Made by a program: the position numbers and the translations under genes | Shown: positions 2,931 through 55,412 of the stretch, piece by piece | Layout of the letters: every line of letters begins with the position of its first letter | Position numbering within the stretch: position 1 is the stretch's first letter | DNA from: Eledone cirrhosa | Lineage: Eukaryota | Direction: 5' to 3' | DNA length: 64,000 nucleotides | Assembly: GCA_964016885.1 (NCBI GenBank) | Contig: OZ024740.1 | Coordinates: 253,766,001 to 253,830,000 of the forward strand | Notes under the pieces: generated by a model | The model's database searches: none | The model's input: only the letters and a program-made list of their open reading frames with translations | Told to the model about the DNA's origin: nothing

Positions 2931-3074
2931 ATACAGGTGTGTATATATATATGTACGCACAAATATATATATATAAAATATATATATATATATATAAAAT
3001 ACATAATATATATATATACATAAAATACATATATATATATAAAATACATATATACATACACACATACATATAAA

Positions 3075-3118
<44 letters not shown>

Positions 3119-3275
3119 TGGATTAAATGCTCTGAAATAGCGATATATATGTGAAGATAGACATAGAATATTCGAAAATATTCTGTATGTTTATAATAAA
3201 CATTTTGAAGACCTAATCGCTATAGAATAGAATACGTCACGTATTACAATTAGATTCTCGATAAAAGCAAGGGAA

Positions 3276-3318
3276 GTAACCTACGCGTTTCATTCTTATT
3301 AGAAATCTTCAGGATTAC
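3276..3318 (-). ncRNA. Hammerhead ribozyme motif (array copy 1)
   Basis: Exact reverse complement of 4229-4271. Confidence 0.8.
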
Positions 3319-3585
3319 ATATCCATTGCTTTTATCGAGAATGACACAGCTAGAGACTTATAGAATACTTAGCTGTGTACAGGAACTGGTTTGAAAGAGC
3401 GGTTGCCGGTCCGGCAGAAATTAGAAATTGGATTAAATGCTCTGAAATAGCGATATATATGTGAAGATAGACATAGAATATTCGAAAATATTCTGTATGT
3501 TTATAATAAACATTTTGAAGACCTAATCGCTATAGAATAGAATACGTCACGTATTACAATTAGATTCTCGATAAAAGCAAGGGAA

Positions 3586-3628
3586 GTAACCTACGCGTTT
3601 CATTCTTATTAGAAATCTTCAGGATTAC
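3586..3628 (-). ncRNA. Hammerhead ribozyme motif (array copy 2)
   Basis: Copy 1 plus 310 bp. Confidence 0.8.
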
Positions 3629-3895
3629 ATATCCATTGCTTTTATCGAGAATGACACAGCTAGAGACTTATAGAATACTTAGCTGTGTACAGGAACTGGT
3701 TTGAAAGAGCGGTTGCCGGTCCGGCAGAAATTAGAAATTGGATTAAATGCTCTGAAATAGCGATATATATGTGAAGATAGACATAGAATATTCGAAAATA
3801 TTCTGTATGTTTATAATAAACATTTTGAAGACCTAATCGCTATAGAATAGAATACGTCACGTATTACAATTAGATTCTCGATAAAAGCAAGGGAA

Positions 3896-3938
3896 GTAAC
3901 CTACGCGTTTCATTCTTATTAGAAATCTTCAGGATTAC
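3896..3938 (-). ncRNA. Hammerhead ribozyme motif (array copy 3)
   Basis: Copy 1 plus 620 bp. Confidence 0.8.
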
Positions 3939-4228
3939 ATATCCATTGCTTTTATCGAGAATGACACAGCTAGAGACTTATAGAATACTTAGCTGTGTAC
4001 AGGAACTGGTTTGAAAGAGCGGTTGCCGGTCCGGCAGAAATTAGAAATTGGATTAAATGCTCTGAAATAGCGATATATATGTGAAGATAGACATAGAATA
4101 TTCGAAAATATTCTGTATGTTTATAATAAACATTTTGAAGACCTAATCGCTTTCAAACCAGTTCCTGTACACAGCTAAGTATTCTATAAGTCTCTAGCTG
4201 TGTCATTCTCGATAAAAGCAATGGATAT

Positions 4229-4271
4229 GTAATCCTGAAGATTTCTAATAAGAATGAAACGCGTAGGTTAC
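4229..4271 (+). ncRNA. Hammerhead ribozyme motif (array copy 4)
   Basis: gtaatc-CTGAAGA-t-ttct(aata)agaa-t-GAAA-cgcg-TA-ggttac; predicted cut after GUA (4265). Stem I is extended by attctcgataaaagcaa/ttgcttttatcgagaat (4205-4293). Confidence 0.8.
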
Positions 4272-4538
4272 TTCCCTTGCTTTTATCGAGAATCTAATTG
4301 TAATACGTGACGTATTCTATTCTATAGCGATTAGGTCTTCAAAATGTTTATTATAAACATACAGAATATTTTCGAATATTCTATGTCTATCTTCACATAT
4401 ATATCGCTATTTCAGAGCATTTAATCCAATTTCTAATTTCTGCCGGACCGGCAACCGCTCTTTCAAACCAGTTCCTGTACACAGCTAAGTATTCTATAAG
4501 TCTCTAGCTGTGTCATTCTCGATAAAAGCAATGGATAT

Positions 4539-4581
4539 GTAATCCTGAAGATTTCTAATAAGAATGAAACGCGTAGGTTAC
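4539..4581 (+). ncRNA. Hammerhead ribozyme motif (array copy 5)
   Basis: Copy 4 plus 310 bp. Confidence 0.8.
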
Positions 4582-4848
4582 TTCCCTTGCTTTTATCGAG
4601 AATCTAATTGTAATACGTGACGTATTCTATTCTATAGCGATTAGGTCTTCAAAATGTTTATTATAAACATACAGAATATTTTCGAATATTCTATGTCTAT
4701 CTTCACATATATATCGCTATTTCAGAGCATTTAATCCAATTTCTAATTTCTGCCGGACCGGCAACCGCTCTTTCAAACCAGTTCCTGTACACAGCTAAGT
4801 ATTCTATAAGTCTCTAGCTGTGTCATTCTCGATAAAAGCAATGGATAT

Positions 4849-4891
4849 GTAATCCTGAAGATTTCTAATAAGAATGAAACGCGTAGGTTAC
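4849..4891 (+). ncRNA. Hammerhead ribozyme motif (array copy 6)
   Basis: Copy 4 plus 620 bp. Confidence 0.8.
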
Positions 4892-5342
4892 TTCCCTTGC
4901 TTTTATCGAGAATCTAATTGTAATACGTGACGTATTCTATTCTATAGCGATTAGGTCTTCAAAATGTTTATTATAAACATACAGAATATTTTCGAATATT
5001 CTATGTCTATCTTTATATATATATATATAAAATACACATATATACACATATAAAATATATATATATATATATATACATATAATATATTTATATATATATA
5101 TATAAAATCAGGTTCAATAAAACGTGGTTTTCATGACTCCTAACCAGTAGAGGATCTGGTGGACCCTCCACAAACTATGGGTGGTTGTTGTTGTCCATTG
5201 GTCATTGGTACGGGGTGTAGGGGACCTACAGAGGGGGGATGCCTTGACCGGGGTTTATCCATATAGCTTGAAGAAAGTTCCCGTCCTTAGGTGTCTGCAG
5301 GCACCGAATAAGTCGGCCCTTCTGTTTAATAGCTTGGTTTCC

Positions 5343-5403
<61 letters not shown>

Positions 5404-5444
5404 TTATTCCGGGTTCAATCGGGGGTAACCACAGTAAGTAAGGT

Positions 5445-5492
5445 ACTCCTGATGATTTCTCACGAATGAAACAGTTCTAGTCCTGTAGAAGC
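5445..5492 (+). ncRNA. Hammerhead-like motif with disrupted stem I
   Basis: CTGATGA-t-ttc(tcac)gaa-t-GAAA-cag(ttctagtc)ctg-TA-gaag; a degenerate relative lies at ~43113-43155. Confidence 0.5.
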
Positions 5493-6206
5493 TTTTCTAT
5501 TCAACAAAGTTAATTTATAACAGATTAGAAGCACTCAAGTTTTCTTCAGGAGTATAATATCAATAATATTAATAAATGGAAACTATCTTTATGAAACCAT
5601 ATTTATTTTATTATATATATTTCAAGGGTACCAGTATTTTAGTACGCTCTCATTAGATAAAATACAAAAATTGGTTTACAGATAGTGACATATCTACATA
5701 CGAACTTAATGTTATGAGTTCTATGTAAATAGTGAATAAAACTTCAAAACTAACAACTTTTATGGAATTGAAAAGGAAGACTATAATAATTTAATACTGA
5801 AAGAACTTAAAAAGAATTATAAAAAAAACTCTAAAGAAGATCTATCAACCTTAAACAAAGAAACTTCCGAAATTATCTACAAATTAGGTATCGAAAATAG
5901 GACTGAACCCTTCATACCAAGACAACCGAAGATAAATATGAAAGACCATAAAAACTCCGTAAACTAATAAAAATTAGAGTTATCTTTTCCTTTGATAAAA
6001 GCATGTTTACATCTAAACTTCACGAGACATTCAAACTTTATGTAAATATTTAAAAAAATTTTTAACTTATTTATAACTATAGAATATACAAAATAATATA
6101 CATCTACACAAAAATATAATTATTTCCACATTCTTAAGCTATATATTGAAAATGCAAACATATCTTCGCTCAACAAATCCTAACTGTTTTCATATATAAA
6201 GGAATC

Positions 6207-9693: not shown

Positions 9694-11555
9694 CTTTCCT
9701 TTTCTTCTTTAAAAATAATTCTAATAATTATTTAAATATACCTAGCGTCTAAACATAACGGTCTTTTTCAGTTTTAAAGTTTTAACGTTATCCTCATTAG
9801 CATATTCATCTCGATGTTTGAAGTTTTATTCACTATTTACATAGAACTCATAACATTAAGTTCATATGTAGATATGTCACTATCTGTAAACCAATTTTTG
9901 TATTTTATCTGATGAGACATATCTACATATGAACTTAATGTTATGAGTTCTATGTAAATAGTGAATAAAACTTCAAACATCGAGATGAATATGCTAATGA
10001 GGATAACGTTAAAACTTTAAAACTGAAAAAGACCGTTATGCTTTTGAGAGCGTACCAAAATACTGGTACCCTTGAAATATATATAATAAAATAAATATAG
10101 TTTTATAAAGATAGTTTCCATTTATTAATATTATATATATATATATGTGTGTGTGTGTAATTAATTTGAGTATGTGTTGGTTAATCACTGACACTTCAGT
10201 ATGCAGAGTATAGCACTCGGTGAAGTGCGCAGTAGGACCACACCACTGAGCAATCTACAAGTGGGAACACACTCAACAAAGGAATCAACACCACAACACA
10301 ACTACTCCTACCACTATTTGACCCGCTATACTACACATGAATATATCCATGTGGCGTTGACAATCGTGAGAATGAATACTCAATATTGAAATATTATTTA
10401 CAAGAAATATTATTTACAAGGTCTCTTTGCATTTTTTATTTTTTTGTTTTTACTGAATTAAAGTGCCAGAGATAGTTGAAGTCCCAAGATAGCTGAAAAC
10501 CTAGATGTCCGGCTATGGGTTTACATGGCTCTGCATTTAATGGCTAAGCAAACAACTAAATAAGTCTTTTATTAAACCAGCCCTAACAAAAAATATACAT
10601 CCCTTCCATTCTGGAGTCTGTAGGATTGTCCTGTAAGAAGAGGCTCGACGGGCTTACTCTTTTCTCTAAGGTAAAAGTAGATGCCTATGGCATACAAAAG
10701 TATACGATAGTTTTGCTCTTTCACATTCACTAAATGCTGTGATGGTGGTGAGAGCTACTACATCGTTGACCGAACAAGGTAGATAATGGCCATTACAAGT
10801 AAATTACACTGTTCAACTCTTGACATTTTAGGCGTTTGGAAGAGCAGGGCCATTAACAATGATTGGTGGTGGAGGTATGTCTCATATGATAATTATTTAA
10901 GTGAATTTATAATATAGAATTCGGTTTAAGTGCATTTCGTATTAATCATTACTAAACATCTAATATGAGATATTGAACATTAGCTTAAATAATTATTGTG
11001 TCGTCTTGAGTTCATAATGACTCTCTTTTTTATAAAAGGATGCCACAGAGTGTACGATAGATAATTATTACAATATTTTTGAGCAACAACTCTAGTCCCA
11101 CACTTTTGAAGGTTTATTATAACATTCTGTGGCTCTTTTGAGCTTGCGCAGTTTTCAGGTTTTAGTATATATATACGAGCAACGAGTGAAAATTTTTAGC
11201 TTTCAAGAAATACTGACAAATACAAGTATTTTCTTCTTTTATTTTTCAACATAGTCTCTTTTTGAGTCCACTCACTTCTTCGACCAGTACAGAAGTGTCT
11301 TTTATTATTCTAAAATATTTATACATTAATATTTATACATTTTTACAGGAGAAAATAGACAATAACAATGAAAATTAATCAAAACTCCCTCAATTGAACA
11401 CTAACAGGGAATACTGGTGTATGCTGCCAGTAAACATTCATGGAGTTCTTCAGTAAGCACTAGCTCTTATTAGATGGAGGCTATCTGAATTACATAACTC
11501 ACCAATGTTCCCCACATGGAAAGCATCTACGCAATCCTTAGAAAATTAATCACTC

Positions 11556-20757: not shown

Positions 20758-21915
20758 CGTTTCTGAATTTGTTTAGCAAGATTCTTTATCTGAAAACGTG
20801 TGTTGAAACCGATATTGTTATACACGTTGGGAGGGTCATGTTGCCAATAAGAAACACATGCGCCAATTGCTTTCACTTCAATTTATTATAATAAATTTAT
20901 AAATTTAGGAATTTATAAATTTCCGGTTGGTTGGTTGGTTCCACAACCAGATGGTTGTTTATATATTGTCAAAGTTCTTTCGTCACACATTCTGTGACCT
21001 CTTCAGTGACTGGGGATTCTTTTCTTTGTTTTTGTGCCTCTCCTTTGTTCTGTCCTACGCCATTTTGTTTCAGTGTGTGTGTTGTGTGCTCAGTCTGCGC
21101 ATGCACCACATCCGGGTGTCTGTGTGTGTTTATATTCGTTTATTTATTTGTTTATTTACATGTTACAGGTTGGTTGTTTGTTCTATGTGCGTGTGTGTTT
21201 TCATTTTGTCCTTAATTGTAAGTTGTGATGTTGCTGTTCCACTCATGTTTTCTATTTAATTTTGGTTGTAATTCTTTTATGTTTATTGCCTCTGTGATTT
21301 GTCTAAACATTGCGTCTTTTCTGTGTGTAGATTCTATTTTTATTTCTATGTTCTCTAATTTACCCTTATGTTCTATTTTAGCATGTTGGTAGAGTACAGA
21401 TGATTCTTTACTATCTTGAAGGTCTCGCCAGTGTTCATTTATCCGTTCCCCTACACTACGAGCTGTCTCACCTATGTACACTATATTTTTGTCTCTACAT
21501 TGTTCTTCAGTACATCTTATGCTATATACTACATTTCTAGTTTTACAGTTAATATGGGGGCTTAATTTACAGGTTATACATTTCTTATGTATACAGGGGG
21601 GTCTTTGAAAAGGGTATGTCTTGCTAATGAGTGTTTTTACGGAGGTACCTGGTCTTTCTACTATCTTAATATTGAGTTTATGTTTATCTGGGGCCCTTCT
21701 AAATTTATAAGCTAATTCACCTCTAGGGGTTGTATCGATGAACATTACACTCTGGTATTTATTGCTATCATACCATGAGTTTATTCTATTAGCCTTATTC
21801 CTAGTTCTTTCTATTCTATTCCAAAATTTGCTCCTATGCAAGGGGCAGGTCCCATTTGTGTCATTATTTACCATTTTTTCCCATTTGGTTCTGGCTCCTC
21901 TATACGCTCTGTGTA
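20756..21915 (-). mobile_element. 3' part of a Penelope-like element (GIY-YIG endonuclease + pseudo-LTR)
   Basis: ORF 21212-~21915 contains NCKTRNVVYSIRC...VYIGETARSVGERINEH...RQITEAINI..LQPKLNRKHEW. Confidence 0.9.
20968..21010 (-). ncRNA. Hammerhead ribozyme motif in PLE 3' repeat
   Basis: Reverse complement reads gtca-CTGAAGA-g-gtcaca(gaatg)tgtgac-GAAA-gaac-TT-tgac. Confidence 0.65.
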
Positions 21916-21916
21916 G

Positions 21917-23085
21917 AAGAGGAGGTTGCGTTGGTATGGACATGTGATGCAAATGAAGGATGATAGCTGCATAAAAAGGTGCAGAGCACTAAAAGTCGAT
22001 GGAAGCCATGTTGTGGGGAGACCCATAAAGACCTGGGATGAGGTGATAAAAGCCGACCTTACCCAATTGCACCTCTCAAAGGCGATGACACAGTAATACA
22101 GAAGACCTGACTTCCCACGGGTACAAGCCAAAGCTGAAGCATATAGACAATATTCTCCCATCCCCTCCCACTGTAAAGTGGTCGTGTAGGTGTCATGACA
22201 AAAAATCACCCAATCCACACCGTAAAGTGGATGTGTAGGGGTCACAGTAAAAAAGCACCCAGTACTCACTAAAAATGAGGTTGGTGTTAGGAATGGCATC
22301 CAGCTGTTGAAATCAAGCCAAAATCAGTTCCATATGAGCAAGACATGGTCACCTGACTTGGCATCACCCACAACAGGACAACCCGTCTAACCCATACTAG
22401 CGTGGAAGAATGGACGTAAAACGGTGATGATGATGATGATGATGATTATGATAATGAAATGAAGCTTCTATGCTCTGTTGGATATAGTAATTTATGTGAA
22501 CTGCAAAGCATAATCAAACTGAGAGAGAAACTAGGCATAAGAGGAATTGGATGCAGTGTGCAGGAAAGGAAACTGCATTGGTATGGATATGTGACGTGTA
22601 TGAAGGATGACAGCTGTATAAAAAGGTGCAGAGTGCTCAAAGTTGATGGAAGCCTCGGAGTTGGGAGACAGAGAAAGACTTGAGATGACTTTGTTCAATT
22701 GCACCTCTCAAAGACAATGACACAGGACCAGGAATTCTGGCGTTATGAAGTAATACAGAAGACCCACCTTCCCATGGGCACAGGCTGAAACTGAAGCATA
22801 CATATATATAGTATGCATTTCTCATGAGGTCAGGCTGTACCATACATCCAGTGAAGCCTCTAGCCCACACTGTAAAGTGGTCATGACGGTGATACAACAT
22901 AAAAGCACCTAGCCCACACTGTACATGTGGTTGGCGTTAGGAAGGGCATCCAGCCATAGAAATCAAGCCAGAAATAGTTCTGTGTGAGTAAGACACAGTC
23001 ATCTGACCAAACTTGTCTCAAACGGTAAAACACGTCAAACCCATGCTGGCATGGAAAAATGGACGTTAAATGGGGATGATTGTGA
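21917..23085 (+). mobile_element. Cluster of RTE LINE 3' fragments and RTE-tailed SINEs
   Basis: RLRWYGHV..MKDDSCIKRCR at 21920 and 22560; SINE core GGAAGGGCATCCAGC...ACCCATGC..GGACGT(T)AAA-(GAT)n at 22200-22447 and 22905-23085. Confidence 0.8.
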
Positions 23086-24708: not shown

Positions 24709-26349
24709 TTACGTCCGCTTTTCCCTGCTTGCAAGGGTGGGACGGGTCTTATTCAGCACAGCATCTCTCCACTCGTCACGGTCCCTCGTCATCTCCACCG
24801 TGAGCTTCAATGATCTGAGGTCTGTTCTCACCACCTCCGCCCATGTTTTTCGTGGTCTACCTCTACCACGTCTTCCTTCAACTGGCATTTCCTGGCACTT
24901 CTTCACCCATCGGTCATCCTCCATGCGCATCACATGTCCATACCACCTCAGTCTCCTCTCCCGTACACTACATTCTATCCCTCTCAGACACAGTCTCTCT
25001 CTCAACACATTTATGCTGGGTCGTTCACGCACATTTACACTGCACATCCAACGGAGCATGCTTGCCTCATTTCTCTCCAGCCGTCGCATATCTTCTGCAG
25101 TTGCTGCCCATGTCTCACTACCATGCAGCCTCACGCTCCTCACACAGTCATCATACAACCGGCCTTTCGTACGCAGGGAGAAACCCTTCTTCGTCAACAG
25201 AGGAAGCAGCTCCCTAAACTTCTTCCAACCCGTCCTTATTCTAGATACTATGGCCTCGGAACACATTCCTCCCATGCTAATCTGATCTCCCAGGTACTGG
25301 AAGCTATCCACCATTTCTATAGCGCCCTCTTGCATTTGAAAAATGTGTCTATCAGTGCGACTTCTACTGTCTAATTTCCCTGTACATCTACTGCATACAT
25401 ATTTCTCCCTACCTGTTAGTTTGCCTGCTATCCCGCTACATCTCTTGTGCACCCAGGATCTGCATTGTGTGCATTTTATAGAATTTATGCCAGTTCCTTT
25501 TCTGCATATCGAACATGGCCATTTCCCTGATGGAATCAGGGTTTTGTCCTCTTTTCTACTCATCAACCCTTTTGTCTTAGCTAGATTCACTCTCAGTCCT
25601 CTTGCTTCTAACTGCTGTTTCCATAGCCATAATTTATTCTCTAGCTCCTCTACTGATTCTGCTATAAGAACCAGATCGTCAGCATAGAGAAGTTCCCATG
25701 GACAGCCAGTCTTAAACCCCTCTGTTATGGCTTGGAGGACTATAATGAACAAGAGCGAGCTGAGGACCGAACCCTGATGTACTCCTACTTGTATCTGAAA
25801 TTCCTCACTAAACTCCATTCCTACCCTGACTTTACTGAGAGTACCTCTGTACAAAGTTTGCACTGTCCTCACAAGCCATTCCTCAACACCTAGCTTCCTT
25901 AGGGACCACCAGATGACAGATCGGGGTACCCTATCAAAGGCCTTCTCTAGGTCAACAAAGGCTAAGTATAGTGGCTTATTCTTCTCTAAGAACCTCTCTT
26001 GCATTTGTCTCACCAAGAAGAGGGCATCTGTTGTACTCTTCCCAGGCACAAAACCAAACTGCATCTCATCTAGTTTGACCCTTTCTCTAATTAGTTGTGC
26101 TAAAATCCTTTCTGCCACTTTCATAACCTGATCTATCAGTTTTATACCCCTATAATTGCTCCTCTCCAAAGCATCCCCTTTACCTTTGTAGCAATTTATG
26201 AGAATACTGCTGCACCAGTCTTTGGGTATGACACCACCATATATAGCCTGATTGATGATGCGTGCAACCAGTTTAGTGCCTACGTCCCCTGATGCCTTCA
26301 GCATCTCAGCAACTATTCCCGATGGTCCGGCCGCCTTACCATTTTTCAT
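24709..26349 (-). CDS. RTE-clade LINE reverse transcriptase (5'-truncated, uninterrupted 546 aa) with an internal PHD-like zinc finger
   Basis: KAAGPSGI, NYRGIKL, QFGFVPGKSTTDA, FVDLEKAFDRV, GVHQGSVLS, LLYADDL, FQYLG and RRLRWYGHV; (ATG)n tail at 24695-24707. Transposon ORF lacking the endonuclease. Confidence 0.92.
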   Translation of the reverse strand: MKNGKAAGPSGIVAEMLKASGDVGTKLVARIINQAIYGGVIPKDWCSSILINCYKGKGDALERSNYRGIKLIDQVMKVAERILAQLIRERVKLDEMQFGFVPGKSTTDALFLVRQMQERFLEKNKPLYLAFVDLEKAFDRVPRSVIWWSLRKLGVEEWLVRTVQTLYRGTLSKVRVGMEFSEEFQIQVGVHQGSVLSSLLFIIVLQAITEGFKTGCPWELLYADDLVLIAESVEELENKLWLWKQQLEARGLRVNLAKTKGLMSRKEDKTLIPSGKWPCSICRKGTGINSIKCTQCRSWVHKRCSGIAGKLTGREKYVCSRCTGKLDSRSRTDRHIFQMQEGAIEMVDSFQYLGDQISMGGMCSEAIVSRIRTGWKKFRELLPLLTKKGFSLRTKGRLYDDCVRSVRLHGSETWAATAEDMRRLERNEASMLRWMCSVNVRERPSINVLRERLCLRGIECSVRERRLRWYGHVMRMEDDRWVKKCQEMPVEGRRGRGRPRKTWAEVVRTDLRSLKLTVEMTRDRDEWRDAVLNKTRPTLASREKRT

Positions 26350-26359
26350 TTCCCTAATG

Positions 26360-26409
<50 letters not shown>

Positions 26410-26411
<2 letters not shown>

Positions 26412-26830
26412 CTCTCTCTTAATTTTGAGTTTATTTTTGACTGGCCATGGAAATTGTTGTCTCTTGTGCATTCATTCATTCTATGAATTGTAAAAATGTT
26501 TTACAAACTTTGAAGGTTTCGGATATTGTGGCCATTTGGAGTTTATGAATTAATGAGTGGCGTTCTTTCTCCATAAATCTAAGTTCAGTTATACTTTGAT
26601 CCAGGTAGTTTGGTATATAACCTGTAGCTCCAATAATAATGTGTATGAAGTTGAACATGTATCTAGGATACTGGATCTGCAAACTCCTCAGTAATGATCA
26701 ATAGATGTCCTCCTTTTCTTACATTTTTCTTATCACATTGACATCATGTGGACTGTTGACTTCTACAACAGAGCATGTTTTTAATGTGCGATCCCAAACA
26801 ACAATATCAGGCCAGTGCTTTAATTTGGTG
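26410..26830 (-). mobile_element. 3' fragment of an R4/NeSL-type non-LTR element (restriction-like endonuclease), pseudogenised
   Basis: KHWPDIVVWD..KTCSVVEV..P.D.NV..K.*EK...Y...IIIGATG fits the PD..D/E..K RLE pattern; in-frame stops. Confidence 0.7.
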
Positions 26831-26852
26831 ACAGTGTATATATATATATATA

Positions 26853-27331
26853 TTAGAATTGGTGCTCTGAAATAGCCATATATATATGAATGTATATATA
26901 GTGTATTTTGCAATACACTTTATGCTTAATTAAAAGCATTTTGAAGACCGTATGCTATTGTTTTAGAGTAGTGACAGACTCACTTTAATTTCAGCAAACA
27001 GGGGGAGATAAAGCTGACAAGGCCTTGTTTCAGCATTTATTGATGCTTATCAAAGCTAACTACTCCTCCCGTCTGCTGAAATTACGGATGTTATGTTCTT
27101 ATAGAATTCTAGTAAATAATCAGGAACTGATTATACAGAGCGGTTGCCGGTCAAGCAGAAATTAAAAATTAGAATTGGTGCTCTGAAATAGCTATATATA
27201 TATGAATGTATATATAGTGTATTTTGCAATACACTTTATGCTTAATTAAAAGCATTTTGAAGACCGTTTTAGAGTAGTGACAGACTCACTTACTTTAATT
27301 TCAGCAAACAGGGGGAGATAAAGCTGACAAG
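26853..27331 (-). mobile_element. Diverged relative of the 310-bp retrozyme-like monomer (316-bp unit, 1.5 copies)
   Basis: Shares GCTCTGAAATAGC, CATTTTGAAGACC, CTTATAGAAT and AGAGCGGTTGCCGGTC..GCAGAAATTA in the same order. The HHR position (27012-27057) reads agct-TTGATAA-gcat(caataa)atgc-t-GAAA-caaggccttg-TC-agct, with the core mutated. Confidence 0.8.
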
Positions 27332-27962: not shown

Positions 27963-28782
27963 TATATATATATATATATATGAGAATCAAAGAGTGTTTA
28001 ATCTTTCAAACATTTAATCACTGACAATCATTTTATCCTAGTACAAGGCCGTGACAACGTTTTGATCTTTTATTTGTGTTTGATTTTTGTTATCAACTCT
28101 GATGATTCCGGCTTTGTTTGAAAGATTAAACACTCTTTGATTGTCATTTACATTGATTGTATTTTGGCTCTGTATTATACTTGTTATTTTACATCGAGCT
28201 ATTTTTATACTTGTAACTGGGTAATATTTATTATTACCCACCATATATATATATTTATATATAGCTATACTTATATATGTTAACCTAATATATTCCTTCC
28301 ATATACTGTACCAATTGTGTTGTTATTTCTGTTTACCTTTTACTTATATATATATAAATGTTCTGAAAGTACAGTAGCCAGAGTTAGAATGGGATGGAAA
28401 AAGTTCAGAGTTAATACCGCTGTTGGCTACAAAAGGTTTCTCTCAAAAAATGGAAGGCAGATTGTATGATGCTTGTATACGAACAGCAATGATGATGGTG
28501 ATATGTGTATGTGTGTATGTATGTATATATATGTATAATGATATTCTTCTTCTTCTTCTTCTTCTTCTTCATACTGAGTTTATTTTTGACCAACCATTTT
28601 CACTGTGGCAAAATAGTTTAGATCATCATTATCATCTTCATGACCATTTACCATATGCTTTCTTTACTAGTAAGGGTTGGAAGGGTTTTCACAGACCGAT
28701 TCAATCCTGATGCAGGACTACTGATCTCCCAAACAGTTTTTCCAGAAGATTTTTCAGGCATGGCACCAATCGTACTATACAA

Positions 28783-28905
28783 GGGTTAGGGTTAGGATTA
28801 AGGTTATAGTTGGTGTTGGGGTTAGGTTTAGGGTTACGGTTGGGGTTGGTGTTGGGGTTAGATTTAGGGTTACGGTTGGGGTTGATGTTGGGGTTAGAGT
28901 TAGGG
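28783..28905. repeat. Degenerate TTAGGG-like hexamer tract with 36-bp higher-order period
   Basis: GGGTTAGGGTTAGGATTAAGGTTA...TTTAGGGTTACGGTTGGGGTTG occurs twice. Confidence 0.8.
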
Positions 28906-38094: not shown

Positions 38095-39975
38095 AAGAGA
38101 AAACACAGGTAAGCATTAAGAGAAGGATTTTATCCAGGTATTTACGACCGTTTCATTGGTAAGTGCAACCTTATATTGTTATACTGCAAATAGCAGCCAC
38201 TCAATTATAATTGTTGTTCACAGTCCAAATTTTCATAATAGTGAGTTACTCTTGAAATAATTCTTAATATATAGAGAAAAACATTTATTTGGAATTGTAT
38301 TTACTAGTATAGAGAGAGAGGAATCAGAAGGTGAGGGGACAGACGGAATAGTATAGAGAGAGAGGAAGGGGGAAGAGGTAGGAAGTAGAGTGACAAACTG
38401 AGATGGAGGGAGGAGTAGAGGTGGAAGGATTCCTTGGTCAGTTTTGATAGCAGACTTCATGTCGTGGAATGTAGTGAATTAAAGAGAACTAAATTGATCA
38501 TAGTGGGAGGGATGGATAGAGAGGGAGAGAGAGAGAGGGGGGAGATATAAAGAGATAAATATATATATATATAAAGATAATAATGACAAAAATAAAAGCA
38601 AAGAAGATACATAACAACACCAGAACACAAATGTATAACAATAACAATACAATCACCACCGAACACAACAGAATATCTAATACACAACCACCCGCTAATA
38701 GGCAAATAAAACGTAACACACTTGTACAGGCATCGCAGCCCACAAATAATGCCAAAGTTGCCCATGACAAGAACTGTAACTGCCACCTACCTGAAACCTG
38801 TCCATTACAAAATGAATGTATGCAGTCTAACCTGGTTTACCAATGCACAGTGGAATCAGACAACCAGAAATGGTATTACATCGGAGCGACTGGGAATACA
38901 TTTAAAGCCTGTTGGTATACATACCGTTACGCAATGAAACATTCCCAGCACCGTTATGTAACTACCCTTGCAAACAAAACTTGGCAACTGAGGGAAAGTA
39001 ACCATCAATACACCCTGAAGTGGAAAAAATTATCGAACGCGCCCCCATATCGGAGTGGTATGAGAAGCTGTCGATTATGCGAGTTTGAAGAATAAGTTAC
39101 TCAACAATAAAATCGAGAGATCAATTTATTGTAACCATAGACTCAAAGAGAAGTTTTCGCACTACAAATCGAACCCTTAACCTCTCACTACCAACTGACA
39201 AACTGCATATACTTAGACTTTATACCCTCTTGCTGTATCTAAACCCTTTTAATTACACACAAAACCAATACATATATCCCCTTCTTCTCCCTCATTCCTC
39301 TTCTATTTCTTCGTTTTCTTCCTTCCTTCCCGCCCCTTCTTGGCTATCTTTTCTTTTCTTCTTTCTCACCCCCTTCTTTGCTTTTATTTTTGTCATTATT
39401 ATCTTTATCTTTTATATATATATATATTTATCTCTTTATATCTCCCCCCCCCCCCTCTCTCCCTCTCTATCCCTCCCTCCCACTATGATCAATTTAGTTC
39501 TCTTTAACTCACTACATTCCATGACATGAACTCTGCTATCAAAACTGACCAAGGAATCCTTCCACCTCTACCCCTCCCTCCATCTCAGTTTGTCACTCTA
39601 CTTCCTACCTCTTCCCTCTCTATACTATTCCGTCTGTCCCCTCACCTTCTGATTCCTCTCTCTCTATACTAGTAAATACAATTCCAAATAAATGTTTTTC
39701 TCTATATATTAAGAATTATTTCAAGAGTAACTTACTATTTTGAAAATTTGGACTGTGAGCAACAATTATAATTGAGTGGCTGCTATTTGCAGTATAGCAA
39801 TATAAGGTTGCCAATGAAACGGTCGTAAAAACCTGGATAAAATCCTTCTCTTAATGCTTACCTGTGTCTTTTTCTCTTTTATACTTTATACTCCAAGATT
39901 GAATGGAATTCTTACAAACTTGTGGAGTTACCCCTAACCGTACGTTGAAACGATCCATGAAACTGGCTTTCTTAA
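38095..39975 (+). mobile_element. 5'-truncated Penelope-like element: inverted pseudo-LTRs flanking a GIY-YIG endonuclease fragment
   Basis: Arms 38095-38606 and 39373-39878 are reverse complements. ORF 38583-39095 contains CNC..CPLQNEC..NLVYQCTV..YYIGAT..FK..CRLC. Confidence 0.9.
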
Positions 39976-46656: not shown

Positions 46657-48686
46657 TTAGAGACAAAAGACTGGCATGGAATGCTTGAAAAAATGGTGCT
46701 AGTAGAGATTAATACACAGCCGCTAAGTGAGAAGCTAGATGTCAGGTGTACTTAGCACGCAGGGAGGCTGAGAGTAGGAGGTTTGCCAATGTTCTGCGAC
46801 GGGAAGATCAGAGGTGTGCGGTGTTCCACATTGCAAGGCAGTGTGTCAATGCAAATCAGGATATTGTTGGAGATAAATGTGTGCGGAATGATGCCGGTGT
46901 ACTTAGTGTCACGAATGATCAGAAAAAGGAGGCCTGGAAATGTCATTATGAGAGACTGATGAATGTGGAGAACGAATGGGAGAGAGAAATTAATCCCAGT
47001 AGACTCGACAGAGGGACCAGCTATTGAGATTGACGAATATAGGGTACAAGAGGCAATTAAGGAAATGAAGAATGGTATAGTTGCTGAGATGCTGAAGGCA
47101 TCAGGGGACGTAGGCACTAAACTGGTTGCACGCATCATCAATCAAGTTATATATGGTGGTGTCATACCCAAAGACTGGTACAGCAGTATTCTCATAAATT
47201 GCTACAAAGGTAAAGTGGATGCTTTGGAGAGGAGCAATTATAGGGGCATAAAGCTGATGGATCAGGTTATGAAAGTGGCAGAGAGAATATTAGCGCAACT
47301 AATTAGAGAAAGGGTCAAATTAGATGAGATGCAGGTTCGTTTTGTGCCTGGAAAAAGTACAACAGATGCCCTCTTCTTAGTGAGACAACTACAAGAGAGG
47401 TTCTTAGAGAAGAATAAGCCACTATACTTAGTTTTTGTTGACCTTTGATAGGGTACCCCGATCTGTCATCTGATGGTCCCTAAGGAAACTAGGTATTGAG
47501 GAATGGCTTGTGAGGACAGTGCAAGCTATGTGCAGAGGTGCTGTCAGTAAAGTGAGAGTAGGAATGGAGTTTAGTGAGGAATTCCAGATACAAGCAGGGT
47601 TCGGTCCTCAGTCCACTCTTGTTTATTATAGTCCTCCAAGCCATAACAGAGGAGTTTAAGACTGGCTGTCCATGGGAACTTCTCTATGCTGACGATCTGG
47701 TTCTTGTAGCAGAATCAGTAGAGGAGCTAGAGAATAAATTCTGGCTATGGAAACCAGTTGGAATCAAGAGGACTAAGAGTGAACCTAGCTAAGACAAAAG
47801 TGTTGATAAGTAGAAGAGAGGACAATACTCTGATTCCATCAGGGAAATGGCCATGTTCGATATGTAGAAAAGGAACTGGCATAAATTCCATAAAATGTAC
47901 GCAATGCAGATTTTGGGTACATAAGAGATGTAATGGGATAGCAGGCAAACTAACAGGTATGGAAAATTACATTTGCAGTAGATGTACAGGGAATGTTGGC
48001 AGTAGTAATCGCAGTGATAGACACATTTTTCCATTGCAGGTGGGTTCTATAGAAGTGGTTGATAGCTTCCGGTACCTAGGTGATCAGATCAGCATGAGAC
48101 GGGGGGGGGGGTGTTCCGAGGCCATAGTATCTAGAATAAGGACGGGTTGGAAGAAGTTTAGGGAGCTGCTTCCTCTGTTGACAAAGAAGGGTTTTTCTCT
48201 GCGTACGAAAGGACGGTTATATGATGCCTGTATGAGATGCGCGATGCTGCATGGTAGTGAGACATGGGCAGCAACTGCAAAGGATATGCGGCGGCTGGAG
48301 AGAAATGAAGCATGCATGCTCCGTTGGATGTGCAATGTCAATGTGCGTGAACGACCAAGCATAGACGAGTTGAGAAAGAATCTGGGTATAAGAGGGATAA
48401 GTTGTGGTGTGCAGGAGAGAAGACTGAGATGGCATGGACATGTGATGCGCATGGAGGATGACCACTGGGTAAAGAAGTGCCAAGAAATCCCAGTAGGAGG
48501 AAGCCGCAGTATAGGTAGACCACGAAAAACATGGGCGGAGGTGGTGAGAGCAGACCTCAGATCGCTGAATCTCACAGAGTAGATGACGAAGGACCGTGAC
48601 AAGTGGAGAGATGCTGTGCTGAATAGGACCCGTCCCACCCTTGGAAGCAGAGAAGAGCGGACGTAAAATGATGATGATGATGATGC
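46657..48686 (+). mobile_element. RTE LINE, same family as 24709-26349, 5'-truncated and frameshifted
   Basis: ORFs 46963-47448, 47574-47792 and 47758-48582 are nearly identical in protein to the 546-aa ORF; (GAT)n tail. Confidence 0.93.
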
Positions 48687-51412: not shown

Positions 51413-54400
51413 CCTGGGGTGTCAGGGAGGGGCATGTACCTCTGTAGGGGGGCTAGCCATGCCCTTTTCAGGACAGTTCATCCTGCATTGGGTCCCACCT
51501 GACACTCAGCTCTCACCTGTGGCCCCAAGAAGCTGTAGCATGTGACAGCGGCCACACCCCGGTAAATCGCCTTGGCTGGTCTGAAACCCCCCGGTGAGTG
51601 AGATAGGGGATGCCTGCTCCTGCATGCGAAGACTGGACCCGGTGGAGTGAGTGGAGGAGGACAACGGTCACGAAGGCGGCGACAGCAAGCGGTGTGGAGC
51701 GCTAGGGCACGGCAAGTCACTACAGACGTCGTGGCCATCCACTGCAGCCAAGGAAGTTCCTGGTTGTGACGGTCCTCCGTACCACCGGATTCTGGCTTCT
51801 GCGACCGAGTGAGTGGGACCATCACTGTGCACTCGCCCTCCCACTATAAACCTTTCCCGCACAGGTTTCTTCTTTAGTGTGCACTCCCAAAGCCCTGCGG
51901 CGATGAGCGAGAGGCGGAGGTAACAGGTGGAGGTAACCTCTGGGAGTTGCCAGTCTCAAACCCACACGTGGGCGGCCTGGATGCGCAACTTGTTCTCCTC
52001 CTGACCCTGGGATGACAGAGGAGATCAGGCATTCCACCGGGCGACTGAGCAGCCCTTTTCAGGGGAGCACTGCTCAACCTCGCACGAGGGGAGGGGCGAT
52101 AAAAGCAGCCCTAACCAATTGCTTGTCCCACACAAAGCCGGCCAGTCTACCACGGTTGCCGGTTTTACATTTCCAAGTAGTCGAAACCAACACAATAGAA
52201 AGAAGAACTTGATTCTTGGCACATGGATAGGGAAACTTTGAGGCCAGAGAGAATAACTGCCCTCATAGCTCGCTACTGGATCGTCATAGCCGCCCTCAGC
52301 GAGACCAGACTCGCTGAAGAAGGATCAGTAGCAGAACCGAAAGGAGGCTACACCTTCTTCTGGAAGGGCAATGCAAAGGACGAGGACAGAATCCACGGGG
52401 TAGGCCTGGCCATCAGGACTTCGTTCTGCAAGCAGCTACCAGACCTCCCAACACCTGTGAGTGAGCGGCTGATGAAGCTCCGCTTCCCCCTTGACCCATT
52501 TCGGCATGTCACAGTCATCAGCGCGTACGCCCCCACTCTCACCAGCAGCAATGAAGCAAAGGATGCTTTCTACAGGGAACTCAACGCACACGTGAATGCC
52601 CCCCCCCCCCCCAAGTGATAAACTCATCCCACTGGGGGACTTCAACGCAAGAATCGGGTCTGACAGCAGCAACTAGAGAGGCGTGCTGGGACCTCACGAC
52701 ACAGGGAAGCTGAACTCTAACGGCCTCATATTGTTGAGTTTCTGCGCCGAGAACGACCTCACCATCACCAGCACACTGTTCCGCCAGGCAGACAAGTTCA
52801 AGACGACATGGATGCACCTCAGATCCAAACAGTGGCATCTGATTGACTTTGTCATATGCCGCAGGAGGGACATCCGTGACGTCAAAATCACCAGGGCCAT
52901 GCGTGGTGCAGAGTGTTGGACCCACCATCGCCTTGTCAGGACCATCCTGTCACTGCACATCACCCCGACGCATCGGAAGACTCCGAAAGTCTGTAGGCCA
53001 GCTTTCGACGTTGCACGACTCAAGCAGCCAGAGCATCGTGATGCGTTCGCGGAAGACCTGGACAGCCAGCTGACTGCCCATGGACCACTGACCGGACTCC
53101 CAACTCAACAGTGGGACCAGTTCAGGTCACTGGTGACAGTCAGCCAAGGCAACCATTGGGCCGAGGGAGAGAGTCCACCAGGACTGGTTTGATGAAAACG
53201 ATGAGCGCATCAGACAACTCCTGGACGAGAAGAGGAGGGCTTTCATTGAGTGACAGAATGACAGCTCCTCCACCTCGAAGCGCGACCGCTTCAAGCACCT
53301 CCAGAGGCAGACCCGAGCAGCGCTACGCAGAATGCAGGTGGGAAAAGAAGGTTGAAGAAGTCGAGAGATACGCTGACACAAAGAACTCCAAGATGTTCTT
53401 GAGCGCCATCGGGGACGTCTACGGACCCCCCCCCCCCAAGCCTGTCACCACACTGCTCCTGTCTGCTGACGGCTTGATCCTGCTGAAGGAGAAGCGCAGC
53501 ATCAACTCGAGGTGGAGAGCGCACTTCAGTAACTTGCTCAACAGGCCCTCCACTGTTGACCCTGCCGCCCTCGACCAGGTCCCACAGAAACCCGTATTCG
53601 GCAGCCTTGACCCCCCCCCCCCCCAACGTTGGATGAAGTCACGAAGGCAATCAACCAGACCAGCTCAGGAAAGGCCCCTGGGAAGAACGGGATTCCTGTC
53701 GAGATCTTCAAGTCGGCCGGTCCAGCTACCCTGGGGGCCTTCCACACCTCGTCAGCATATGGGAGGTAGAAGAGGTGCCCAAAGACTTCAGGGATGTCAC
53801 AGTTGTCTCGCTTTTTTAAGAACAAAGGCAGCAAAACTGACTGTGGCAACTATCGGGGCATTTCTCTCCTGTCCATCGCTGGGATGGTCCTGGCTCGAGT
53901 CATGCTCAACCGCCTCATTGCCAACATCTCGGAGGACAACCTGCCTGAGGCCCAGTGTGGGTTCCGCCCAAACCGCAGCACAATCGACATGATCTTCTCT
54001 GTACGCCAGGTGCAGGAGAAGTGTGTCGAGCAGAACATGGACCTCTTTGCCGTCTTCATAGACTTGATGAAGGCCTTCGACACTGTCAATAGGGAGGCCC
54101 TCTGGTTGATCCTGTTGAAGTTTGGATTCCCGACCAAGTTTGTGAACCTGATACGGCCATTCCATGACCACATGACCGGGCAGGTGCACTCGAGCAGAGA
54201 GGCATTGGAGCCGTTCGGAATCACCAATGGCGTCAAGCAAGGTTGCATGCTGGCTCCCGTCCTCTTCAACCTGTTCTTTACCCGCACACGCAATCATGCC
54301 GTAAGGGACCTTGAGCACGGACTGTATCTGCGATACAGATTGGATAGCTCCCTGATTGACCTGCGGTGCCTGACGGCCAAGACAAGGACCGTGCAGAGGA

Positions 54401-55412
54401 TCGTCCTGGAGGCACTTTTTGCTGACAACTCTGCTCTCATTCATCTCATGGCCCACAGGGAGTCTGACCTCCAAGTCATCGTCAACAAGTTTGCTGAGGC
54501 CTCCTGCCTCTTCGGTCTCACAATTAGCCTTGGCAAGACAGGTACTGTTCCAGCCTGCACCTGTCTCCATCACCCACCCTCCTTCCATCTCCATCGGAGG
54601 TACCCAGTTAAAGATGGTGGATGACTTCAAGTACCGCGGCAGTATCATCAGCAGCGATGGAAGCCTCGACAAGGAGATAAACGCCAGGATCTACAAGGCT
54701 AGTCAAGCCCTTGGCTGCCTGAGGACACACATCCTGAACTAGCAGTCCACCAAGCTCAAGGTGTACAGGGCCGGTGTTCTCACCAGCCTCCTCTACGGAT
54801 GTGAGACATGGACCCTGTACAGAAGGCACCTGAAGCAGCTGGAACGGTTCCACCTGCGCAGTCTGCGGTCAATCATGAACATCAAATGGCAGGGCAAGGT
54901 CTCCAACCTCGAAGTTCTTGACATGGCTGAGACAACCAGTGTCGAAGCTGATACCGAAGAGCCAACTTCGATGGGTAGGACATGTCATCCGGATGGACGA
55001 TCACAGGCTTCCGAAGCAACTGATGTATGGGGAACTCTGTTCGGGGAAACGAAAGTAGGGCAGGCCTTTCAAGAGGTTCAAAGACTGCGTGAAGTCCAGT
55101 ATCAACAACACTGGAATCGCCCTAAAACAACTCGAGTCCCATGCTCAGGACAGGACTGAGTGGCGAGCCCTTACCAGACGCGCCTAAGACTCTTTTGAAG
55201 AGAAGAGACTGGCAGAGGTCACTGAGGCCCGTGAAAGGAGAAAGGCATTAACAGCTGCCCCAAGCGACTCCGGTCTCTTCCCTTGCCCCCACTGTCCCCA
55301 GACCTGCAAGTCAAGGATCAGCCTCCACAGTCACCTTCGTGTCCACGGCAGACAGGAACTAAAATAAAGATGTGATCATCATTTACAATGGTCAACCAAC
55401 AGAGAGAGAGAC
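51413..55412 (+). mobile_element. Near full-length RTE/BovB-like LINE (5' UTR, APE endonuclease, RT, C-terminal C2H2), pseudogenised
   Basis: IAALSETR, GYTFFWKG, VISAYAPT, LGDFNAR, TTWMH..SKQWHLID, NYRGISLLS, QCGFRPNRSTIDMIF, GVKQGC.LAP, LFADN and CPHC...H; (AG)n tail. Confidence 0.93.

Follow-up and report, generated by a model that had tools for sequence, protein, structure and literature searches.

How does a short repeat with no coding capacity come to stand in two inverted, perfectly identical tandem arms inside a microsatellite? We asked this for a locus at positions 3115 to 5013 of a 64,000-nt stretch of the Eledone cirrhosa genome (contig OZ024740.1, positions 253,766,001 to 253,830,000; hereafter, the window). 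The unit is 310 bp long, has a GC content of 34% and is non-coding, with a longest stop-free frame of 59 codons. Tandem Repeats Finder delimited two arrays (3115-4151 and 4150-5024), which sequence comparison resolved into two divergent arms, each exactly periodic and the reverse complement of the other, with 6.1 units in total and 100% identity across both arms. A preliminary description, made from the sequence letters, had reported about six copies of an ORF-less unit with no visible differences, and this agrees with our counts; it had also taken the copies for one array of 310-nt monomers, and here the unit and the copies stood but the head-to-tail layout did not. The main features are listed below, with unit positions numbered from the base after the predicted ribozyme cut (4266 = position 1) and with A and B denoting the two sites at which outer ends cluster in the family.

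2963 to 3114, no strand: left half of the (TA)n-rich target microsatellite
3115 to 4151, minus strand: left arm, 1037 bp, 3.35 identical units
3115, minus strand: outer 3' end of the left arm, unit position 167 (site B)
3932, 3622 and 3312, minus strand: hammerhead cores, with predicted cuts at 3902, 3592 and 3282
3946, 3636 and 3326, minus strand: sites of the position-266 allele in the minus arm
4150 to 4151: inner junction of two 5' ends (unit positions 61 and 195), with a 2-nt microhomology or overlap
4150 to 5013, plus strand: right arm, 864 bp, 2.79 identical units
4205 to 4293, plus strand: 17-bp helix beneath the ribozyme, in which 4205-4221 pairs with 4277-4293
4221, 4531 and 4841, plus strand: sites of the position-266 allele in the plus arm
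4229 to 4271, plus strand: type-I hammerhead motif with predicted cleavage, with copies 310 and 620 nt further on and three more on the minus strand
4235, 4545 and 4855, plus strand: hammerhead cores (CUGAAGA), with predicted cuts after 4265, 4575 and 4885
4266 to 4575, plus strand: one cut-to-cut monomer of 310 nt, the predicted circle
4344 to 4382, plus strand: two adjoining hairpins at unit positions 79-95 and 98-117, a short way before site A
4703 to 4742, plus strand: the 'tail' in one internal unit, from site A (positions 128-139, an A/U tract) to site B (165-167)
5013, plus strand: outer 3' end of the right arm, unit position 128 (site A)
5014 to 5104, no strand: right half of the (TA)n-rich target microsatellite

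The sense strands of the two arms point outward, so that both outer ends are 3' ends, each lying against (TA)n. After 5013, the (TA)n sequence continued in register with the A/U tract of the unit, and target-site duplications were unreadable inside the microsatellite. All of this belongs to a single insertion; the repeat concerned is young, very abundant and non-coding, and its RNA carries a motif predicted to cut itself.

To describe the family, we searched the host assembly (3.0 Gb, 1796 contigs). A degenerate pattern of the hammerhead core was found 12,626 times (6266 forward, 6360 reverse; 0 in the control), and the unit itself gave at least 299 matches from the best 40 of 397 candidates. 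The best 150 listed matches were 99-100% identical and lay on eight large contigs. Loci were sampled in three sets: 39 regions drawn from these 150 matches and biased toward the sub-lineage of the window; 31 from the first 100 places of a family-allele pattern on contig C1; and, ordered by position, all 15 clusters among the first 100 hits of the general pattern, plus one chance array. The units, 308-312 bp long, fell into nested sub-lineages. Those of 310 and of 311 bp alike carried the alleles at positions 259 and 211, which means either that sub-lineages recombine or that a one-base insertion in stem I recurs.

The genome search, proposed in the preliminary description as a check on copy number, returned dispersed young insertions in large numbers. 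In the 31 loci scanned for ORFs, no PLE (Penelope-like element) ORF adjoined the unit, and two-armed copies had (TA)n on both sides; the possibility, raised earlier, that the unit occurs only as the terminal repeat of a coding PLE does not fit these loci. The tandem low-GC unit, the consecutive type-I motifs and the dispersed copies are all characters by which retrozymes are recognised. As to the earlier remark that the family was not known as described, it is indeed a very young family of its own, but its class, the non-LTR retrozymes, has been published.

Each of the six hammerhead-like motifs in the window (three per arm) carried the full type-I core, at a regular spacing of 310 nt, as expected from the earlier claim of one hammerhead, of predicted activity, in each unit. 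In the motif at 4229-4271, stem I is formed by the pairing of 4229-4234 with 4266-4271, the core starts at 4235, and the cut is predicted after 4265; stem II has four base pairs on a U-U pair, and stem III two, in a palindromic arrangement. A covariance search, suggested at the same time, gave a mixed answer: the Rfam model Hammerhead_HH9 was placed on the exact coordinates and strand of the motif, but with 18.6 bits against a gathering threshold of 52 (E 0.054), and an Rfam scan of 10 kb gave no hammerhead match at E ≤ 1. Rfam miRNA matches in the window were dismissed as noise from AT-rich hairpins. Stem II also lacks the G10.1-C11.1 pair, described as typical of PLE hammerheads in passages of PMC4209133, and the long helix II of the minimal PLE hammerhead.

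Predicted folding of the monomer was more stable than that of 100 out of 100 shuffled sequences (z -4.7), and folding of the ribozyme region more stable than that of 200 out of 200 (z -5.9). All hairpins named in the preliminary description were present in the sequence and in the predicted minimum-energy or centroid fold. The 17-bp perfect helix was likewise found in the window insertion, but it is not a trait of the unit, as the 38 other close loci have 16 bp and a mismatch. Stem III was absent from the minimum-energy fold of a single hammerhead motif, while in a two-unit transcript the double-hammerhead fold was only 0.3 kcal/mol above the minimum. These models agree with the earlier idea that the ribozyme acts as a dimer, and dimer dependence is expected of type-I hammerheads (passages of PMC4209133).

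Changes in the ribozyme at the level of lineages affected stem I, the free core position, the base of stem II and loop II, and spared the invariant core; stem I remained paired in every sub-lineage. This pattern is counted in favour of a ribozyme that may be under selection. The stem II closing pair was A-U in younger sub-lineages, giving a 5-bp stem, and otherwise stem II had 4 bp on U-U. The closing U-U pair, given earlier as a caveat, is thus real in the window, but it carries less weight because the younger sub-lineages close with A-U. In an alignment of 11 sequences from two families, pairing upstream of site A was kept in 95.9% of cells, and three base pairs of the two hairpins were altered on both sides. 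As this alignment counts essentially one family split many times, and three of its rows end in unrelated sequence, the covariation lends modest support to these hairpins, which are likely to form part of the reverse transcriptase (RT) binding site.

The ends of the insertions are strongly patterned. Sense-strand 3' ends clustered at two sites, A (about 125-139) and B (about 156-172), whereas 5' ends were scattered. Complete divergent insertions with arms of 40 nt or more numbered 60, and 58 of them had one end at A and one at B, in equal numbers of the two orientations (29 AB and 29 BA), with A and B ends 26-37 nt apart, a spacing that corresponds to the PLE 'tail'. None of the 60 was of the AA, BB or convergent type; the other two had an off-site end (L059 and L066). 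With the same 40-nt cut-off, 28 insertions were one-armed, of which 24 ended at A or B. One of those counted as one-armed, L045, has a 13-nt second arm also ending at B and is a possible B-B exception. Two insertions cut off by the fetched stretch were excluded from the end count, and two further A/B insertions (L145 and L146) were found beyond the 60.

Nearly all A and B ends lay against (TA)n, with a single case of (TAA)n (L058). At A, the flanking (TA)n was in the register of the unit's A/U tract in 64 of the 74 ends and never in the other register (10 unclassified); at B, one register was found in 54 of the 71 ends and the other in 14 (3 unclassified). This agreement of register is as predicted by target-primed reverse transcription with some RNA-DNA pairing. 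The inverted, 5'-truncated arm, the tail of 30-40 nt at one end and the AT-rich or microsatellite target are characters of non-autonomous PLEs. Mobilisation in trans by a PLE, as first suggested, is well supported by these PLE-type ends in (TA)n, together with the dispersed young copies and the lack of an adjoining PLE ORF in the scanned loci.

The inner junctions differed from the outer ends in being variable. Arms were joined directly in 35 of the 60 insertions and with filler, often derived from the unit, in the remaining 25; a microhomology of at least 2 nt was present in 18 of the 35 direct junctions, versus 18% expected by simulation. Only 4 of 120 inner ends lay within 3 nt of the ribozyme cut (2.7 expected). 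Sequence over the cut was clean in nearly all of the 483 units, and arms extended over many units, up to 14 kb. A single pair among the 60 shared an inner junction (L135 and L142, of different haplotypes), and this junction lies on the unit's own 16-bp inverted repeat.

Two candidate origins of the inverted arm were considered and rejected. Fold-back self-priming was dismissed on the uniform offsets of the inner ends (KS p 0.58; 6 of 60 within 15 nt). Priming of the L1 twin type was dismissed as well, the inner end of one arm lying near the start of the other in 8 of the 60 insertions, with about 12 expected.

To determine whether the two arms of an insertion share a template, we compared them at 18 lineage-defining variants in 61 insertions, including the truncated L144b. 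The arms were concordant in 59 insertions, versus about 20 expected on shuffling, and discordant in two (L084 and L086), versus a mean of 41 after shuffling (minimum of 33 in 1000), an expectation that is exaggerated if sub-lineages were active at different times. Discordant arms numbered 0 out of 12 in the position-ordered subset (8.5 when shuffled), 0 out of 13 in the young clade (8.7) and 2 out of 11 in the older 312-bp clade (7.9). Moreover, 21 of the 61 insertions, spanning 32 kb, showed no difference at all between units.

Private alleles were examined next to these lineage variants. At unit position 266, all six units of the window, in both arms, carried A, and all 38 other close loci carried C. 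A 28-mer with this allele was found in the whole assembly only in the window's six units. A 20-mer that ignores the lineage background was found at 25 places, namely these six, all 17 units of one insertion on contig C3 that belongs to a different sub-lineage, and two single units; since 266 A perfects the long helix, this may explain its recurrence. Similarly, an allele of L087 was present in all three of its units, on both arms, and otherwise in two single units. The source locus of such private alleles could lie on a haplotype outside this assembly. Three of the five alleles probed were rejected as insertion-private and are markers of sub-lineages, present in 808, 812 and 77 units genome-wide. 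Pure sub-lineages of this size require that a change in one unit reach every unit of a daughter insertion. These observations support a monomer bottleneck, best explained by a circle.

Longest pure arrays were also the youngest (L109, about 18 units; L131; and L145, 17 units), with no unit-private change. Older arrays (L038, L042, L046, L050, L064 and L070) were mosaic, with repeating variant blocks (irregular in L038, L046, L050 and L070), which points to later expansion in place and thus to a contribution of expansion at the DNA level. Variants that differ between units were rarely common to several loci (7 among 39 loci). Two particular cases were recorded separately: at 217.79-217.81 Mb of C1 (L113 and L070), a 15-kb two-armed mosaic array of about 48 units was apparently reshuffled in place; and L068 and L069, which lie on C8 at a distance of 52 kb, have their 5' flank and a side fragment of 165 bp in common, indicating a segmental duplication, with arms of 8.7 and 1.7 units, respectively.

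We probably see here a non-LTR retrozyme for which a PLE protein with RT and GIY-YIG domains, acting in trans, wrote both arms from one 310-nt template, most likely a circle. The parts of this reading differ in strength. That the family is a PLE-mobilised retrozyme is very likely, and that both DNA ends were primed on one template is only slightly less so; rolling-circle copying of a monomer circle is favoured with more reserve. In the proposed sequence of events, a read-through transcript of a tandem arm would be cut by dimeric hammerheads and the monomer ligated; with a single palindromic stem III, the resulting circle would be re-cut slowly. A PLE enzyme dimer would then bind the hairpin and tail region and nick both strands of a (TA)n tract. 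One DNA end would prime at site A, paired to the A/U tract, and the other would use site B of the same RNA molecule, 26-37 nt further downstream; the footprint of this step is seen in the ends, and its chemistry is presumed. Both RTs would proceed around the template with strand displacement, giving multi-unit cDNAs identical to one template. The two cDNAs would stop at unrelated positions and be joined through short microhomology or filler, a step whose footprint is seen in the inner junctions, and older arrays would afterwards be shuffled and expanded in place.

Few ends at the cut, clean sequence over it and long arms, together with the uniformity of the arms, imply a uniform template with no free end at that point, that is, a circle or a uniform uncut multimer. 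Under the second possibility, the enzyme and its two-site priming are unchanged, but the template is a linear multimer, left uncut, that comes from transcription of a homogeneous source array or, in a variant, from rolling transcription of a circular RNA or DNA; neither version needs rolling-circle reverse transcription. Such a template would account for the A/B ends, the concordant arms and the few ends at the cut no less well than a circle, and sub-lineages of hundreds of units mean that genomic copies act as sources. In vitro, moreover, an anole PLE takes unprocessed, uncut RNA as its main template and can dispense with its own hammerhead (passages of PMC11167929), which favours linear multimers and counts against the circle. 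However, a linear route copies mosaics, and a new change must fix in every unit of the source before pure daughters can arise; the rarity of unit-differing variants shared between loci (7 among the 39), the lack of a source for the 266 A allele in the assembly, as judged by the 28-mer, and the one shared junction pair in 60, which falls on an inverted repeat of the unit itself, all speak against it, and we regard it as rather unlikely. The same monomer bottleneck would arise if the RT re-copied a cut linear monomer by jumping from its 5' to its 3' end, as telomerase does, with no covalent circle. PLE RTs are related to telomerase (passages of PMC8557442), unit-sequence filler is common at inner junctions (25 of 60) and L066 has three units altered at the first base past the cut; but the cut-spanning sequence is clean in nearly all of the 483 units and inner ends do not pile up there (4 out of 120), making this a very improbable route.

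Growth after insertion was weighed on the same data. A short start of about one unit per arm could be followed by unequal exchange or slippage in place, with gene conversion between the inverted arms spreading alleles. Such growth is suggested by the repeating variant blocks of older arrays (period 10 in L064, period 4 in L042, and the mosaic of L070) and by non-fixed variants common to both arms at four loci, and local amplification is a scenario offered in parts of 10.64898/2026.07.22.740005. As the main origin of the arms it is nevertheless unlikely, since the longest pure arrays (L109, L131, L145) are the youngest, and for an allele to spread through the window's six units while nothing else changed, several conversions would have had to precede any new mutation. 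Perfect tandem and inverted repeats are also hard to assemble, but an assembly error behind the identity of the units or behind the inversion is barely credible: dozens of loci on several chromosomes have the same layout with locus-specific haplotypes and junctions, and contigs of a public run, which may be the source of the assembly, run out into (TA)n at positions 139 and 165 of the unit, leaving loose ends at 4714 and 4740. Finally, a free circle or horizontal spread had been suggested by one 340-nt contig (310 + 30, a closed graph cycle of depth 10-34) in each of three runs filed under other organisms. It was rejected, as these three runs and a fourth also hold low-depth pieces of many other repeats of the window, so that trace host DNA with a collapsed high-copy repeat explains the contigs. 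Among the 24 runs listed as holding the sequence, none was of RNA, which speaks neither for nor against expression.

The partner element was sought among coding PLEs, in which this genome is rich. Searches gave 53,103 and 8,683 candidates for two families, of which 150 each were scored, and in the 26 coding loci compared, no sequence common to the unit and these PLEs was found beyond microsatellite. Having no ORF, the unit lacks the RT and GIY-YIG ORF of an autonomous PLE. We take the two coding families to be Neptune-like on the basis of their motifs; their ORFs had no match in Pfam or PDB. Some coding copies (L115, L118 and L128) were themselves two-armed and longer at one end, also in (TA)n, and the terminal repeats of L115 and L118 carried a minimal hammerhead. 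In L115, L118 and L128, a short purine-rich motif before the longer end loosely resembled that before site B.

A second hammerhead family was found in the window at 26850-27330 (minus strand), also in (TA)n, with further copies at L076, L078, L080 and L122. It was 75-78% similar to the unit over positions 59-212 and had a different hammerhead, with 5-bp stems II and III. The block shared by the two families looks like a swappable RT-binding module. Other repeats of the window included fragments of one coding PLE family at 5402-6100 and 9800-10140, with a 195-bp palindrome at 9800-9994 and, at 5449, a hammerhead core whose stem II resembles that of the retrozyme and likewise sits on U-U. Two fragments at 21006-21988 (minus strand, with a hammerhead-like core downstream) and 38559-39095 (plus strand) presumably correspond to PLE GIY-YIG domains of differing types, and those at 24709-26418, 46963-48582 and 52199-55159 to RTE-like LINEs. 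A degenerate interstitial (TTAGGG)n-like array was present at 28782-28905.

The core idea of the preliminary description stands, with its architecture corrected, and the inversion and the two fixed priming sites, absent from it, carry most of the mechanistic information. Passages of PMC8557442 call the origin of tandem or inverted PLE copies with a tail at one end undefined, the role of retrozyme circles as real transposition templates is still a proposal in those of PMC7229834, and 10.64898/2026.07.22.740005 leaves the mechanism open and leans to local amplification. In the present family, one 310-nt substrate has been inserted naturally, and recently, thousands of times, leaving ends and haplotypes that can be counted, and the unit is a ready substrate for in vitro testing. 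Also of interest for gene-writing tools would be an RT that uses both DNA ends and a small circle to write kilobases of repeats into (TA)n. We give about even chances to a broader reading, in which each insertion of the family is the fossil of one rolling-circle reverse transcription and the genome archives a viroid-like quasispecies circle by circle; a PLE dimer would load both DNA ends on a single hammerhead-made circle, with one subunit on each side of the tail. If true, this would be the first genomic evidence of animal retrozyme circles as a transposition template, and the tandem arrangement, the inversion and the one-sided tail of all endonuclease-bearing PLEs would be traced to a single mechanism.

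Several elements of this account are already in print, as passages of the papers cited here attest: the retrozyme class, its proposed dependence on PLEs, the model of circle to tandem cDNA, and the inverted arm and one-sided tail of PLEs. In the openly available literature covered here, we found neither a count of strict A/B pairing across retrozyme insertions nor a description of retrozyme arms that are haplotype-pure.

In L1 twin priming, both target ends prime on one RNA, and the inverted 5' part is joined by microhomology. The family described here is similar in its proposed two-end priming on one RNA, its inverted 5' part and its microhomology join, but its second site is fixed and not random, and its arms copy overlapping sequence repeatedly. 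With hammerhead viroids and viroid-like circles, the unit shares a size of about 300 nt, the lack of coding sequence, extensive pairing, a hammerhead motif and nested sequence variants; unlike hammerhead viroids, it has the hammerhead on one polarity only, and all evidence is of genomic insertion, with none for RNA-to-RNA replication or a free agent.

Endonuclease-bearing PLEs are closer. They have an inverted 5' copy, a tail of 30-40 bp at one end and a preference for (TA)n (passages of PMC8557442 and PMC3846280), and in vitro their protein, a predicted dimer, was shown to nick AT-rich DNA on both strands and to extend each of them, using two neighbouring internal starts, one at either edge of the tail (passages of PMC11167929). 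Head-to-head arms, a one-end tail, 5' truncation, AT-rich targets and a hammerhead upstream of two priming sites are common to these elements and to the present family. In contrast, the unit described here has no ORF and no sequence link to the 26 coding PLE loci, and its arms are tandems of many units. Pairing with the target occurs at site A, but the start used by the anole PLE has no homology to the cut DNA (PMC11167929), and the inner junctions are not fold-back palindromes, as passages of PMC3846280 propose for PLEs.

The closest relatives are the metazoan non-LTR retrozymes (Cervera and de la Peña 2020, PMC7229834; review, PMC7761336; Li, Clavereau and Pollet 2026, 10.64898/2026.07.22.740005). 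Like the present family, they have a tandem non-coding unit of 150-450 bp with less than 50% GC, a single type-I hammerhead in each unit, its stem III short and palindromic, and thousands of dispersed copies in genomes that also hold PLEs. Their stem II is closed by G-C, against U-U or A-U here, and the excerpted accounts describe them with no inverted arms (the word 'inverted' occurs 0 times in the text of PMC7229834 that was covered). Circles and cleavage were demonstrated for them, whereas the present family is known from genomic sequence. In vitro, eight of nine Xenopus retrozyme dimers were uncleaved (10.64898/2026.07.22.740005), which counts against the proposed reading. Circles as templates for tandem cDNA were proposed for retrozymes in passages of PMC7229834 and PMC7761336; in these accounts mobilisation is left as a hypothesis, whereas the insertion ends and the haplotype purity of the present family address it directly.
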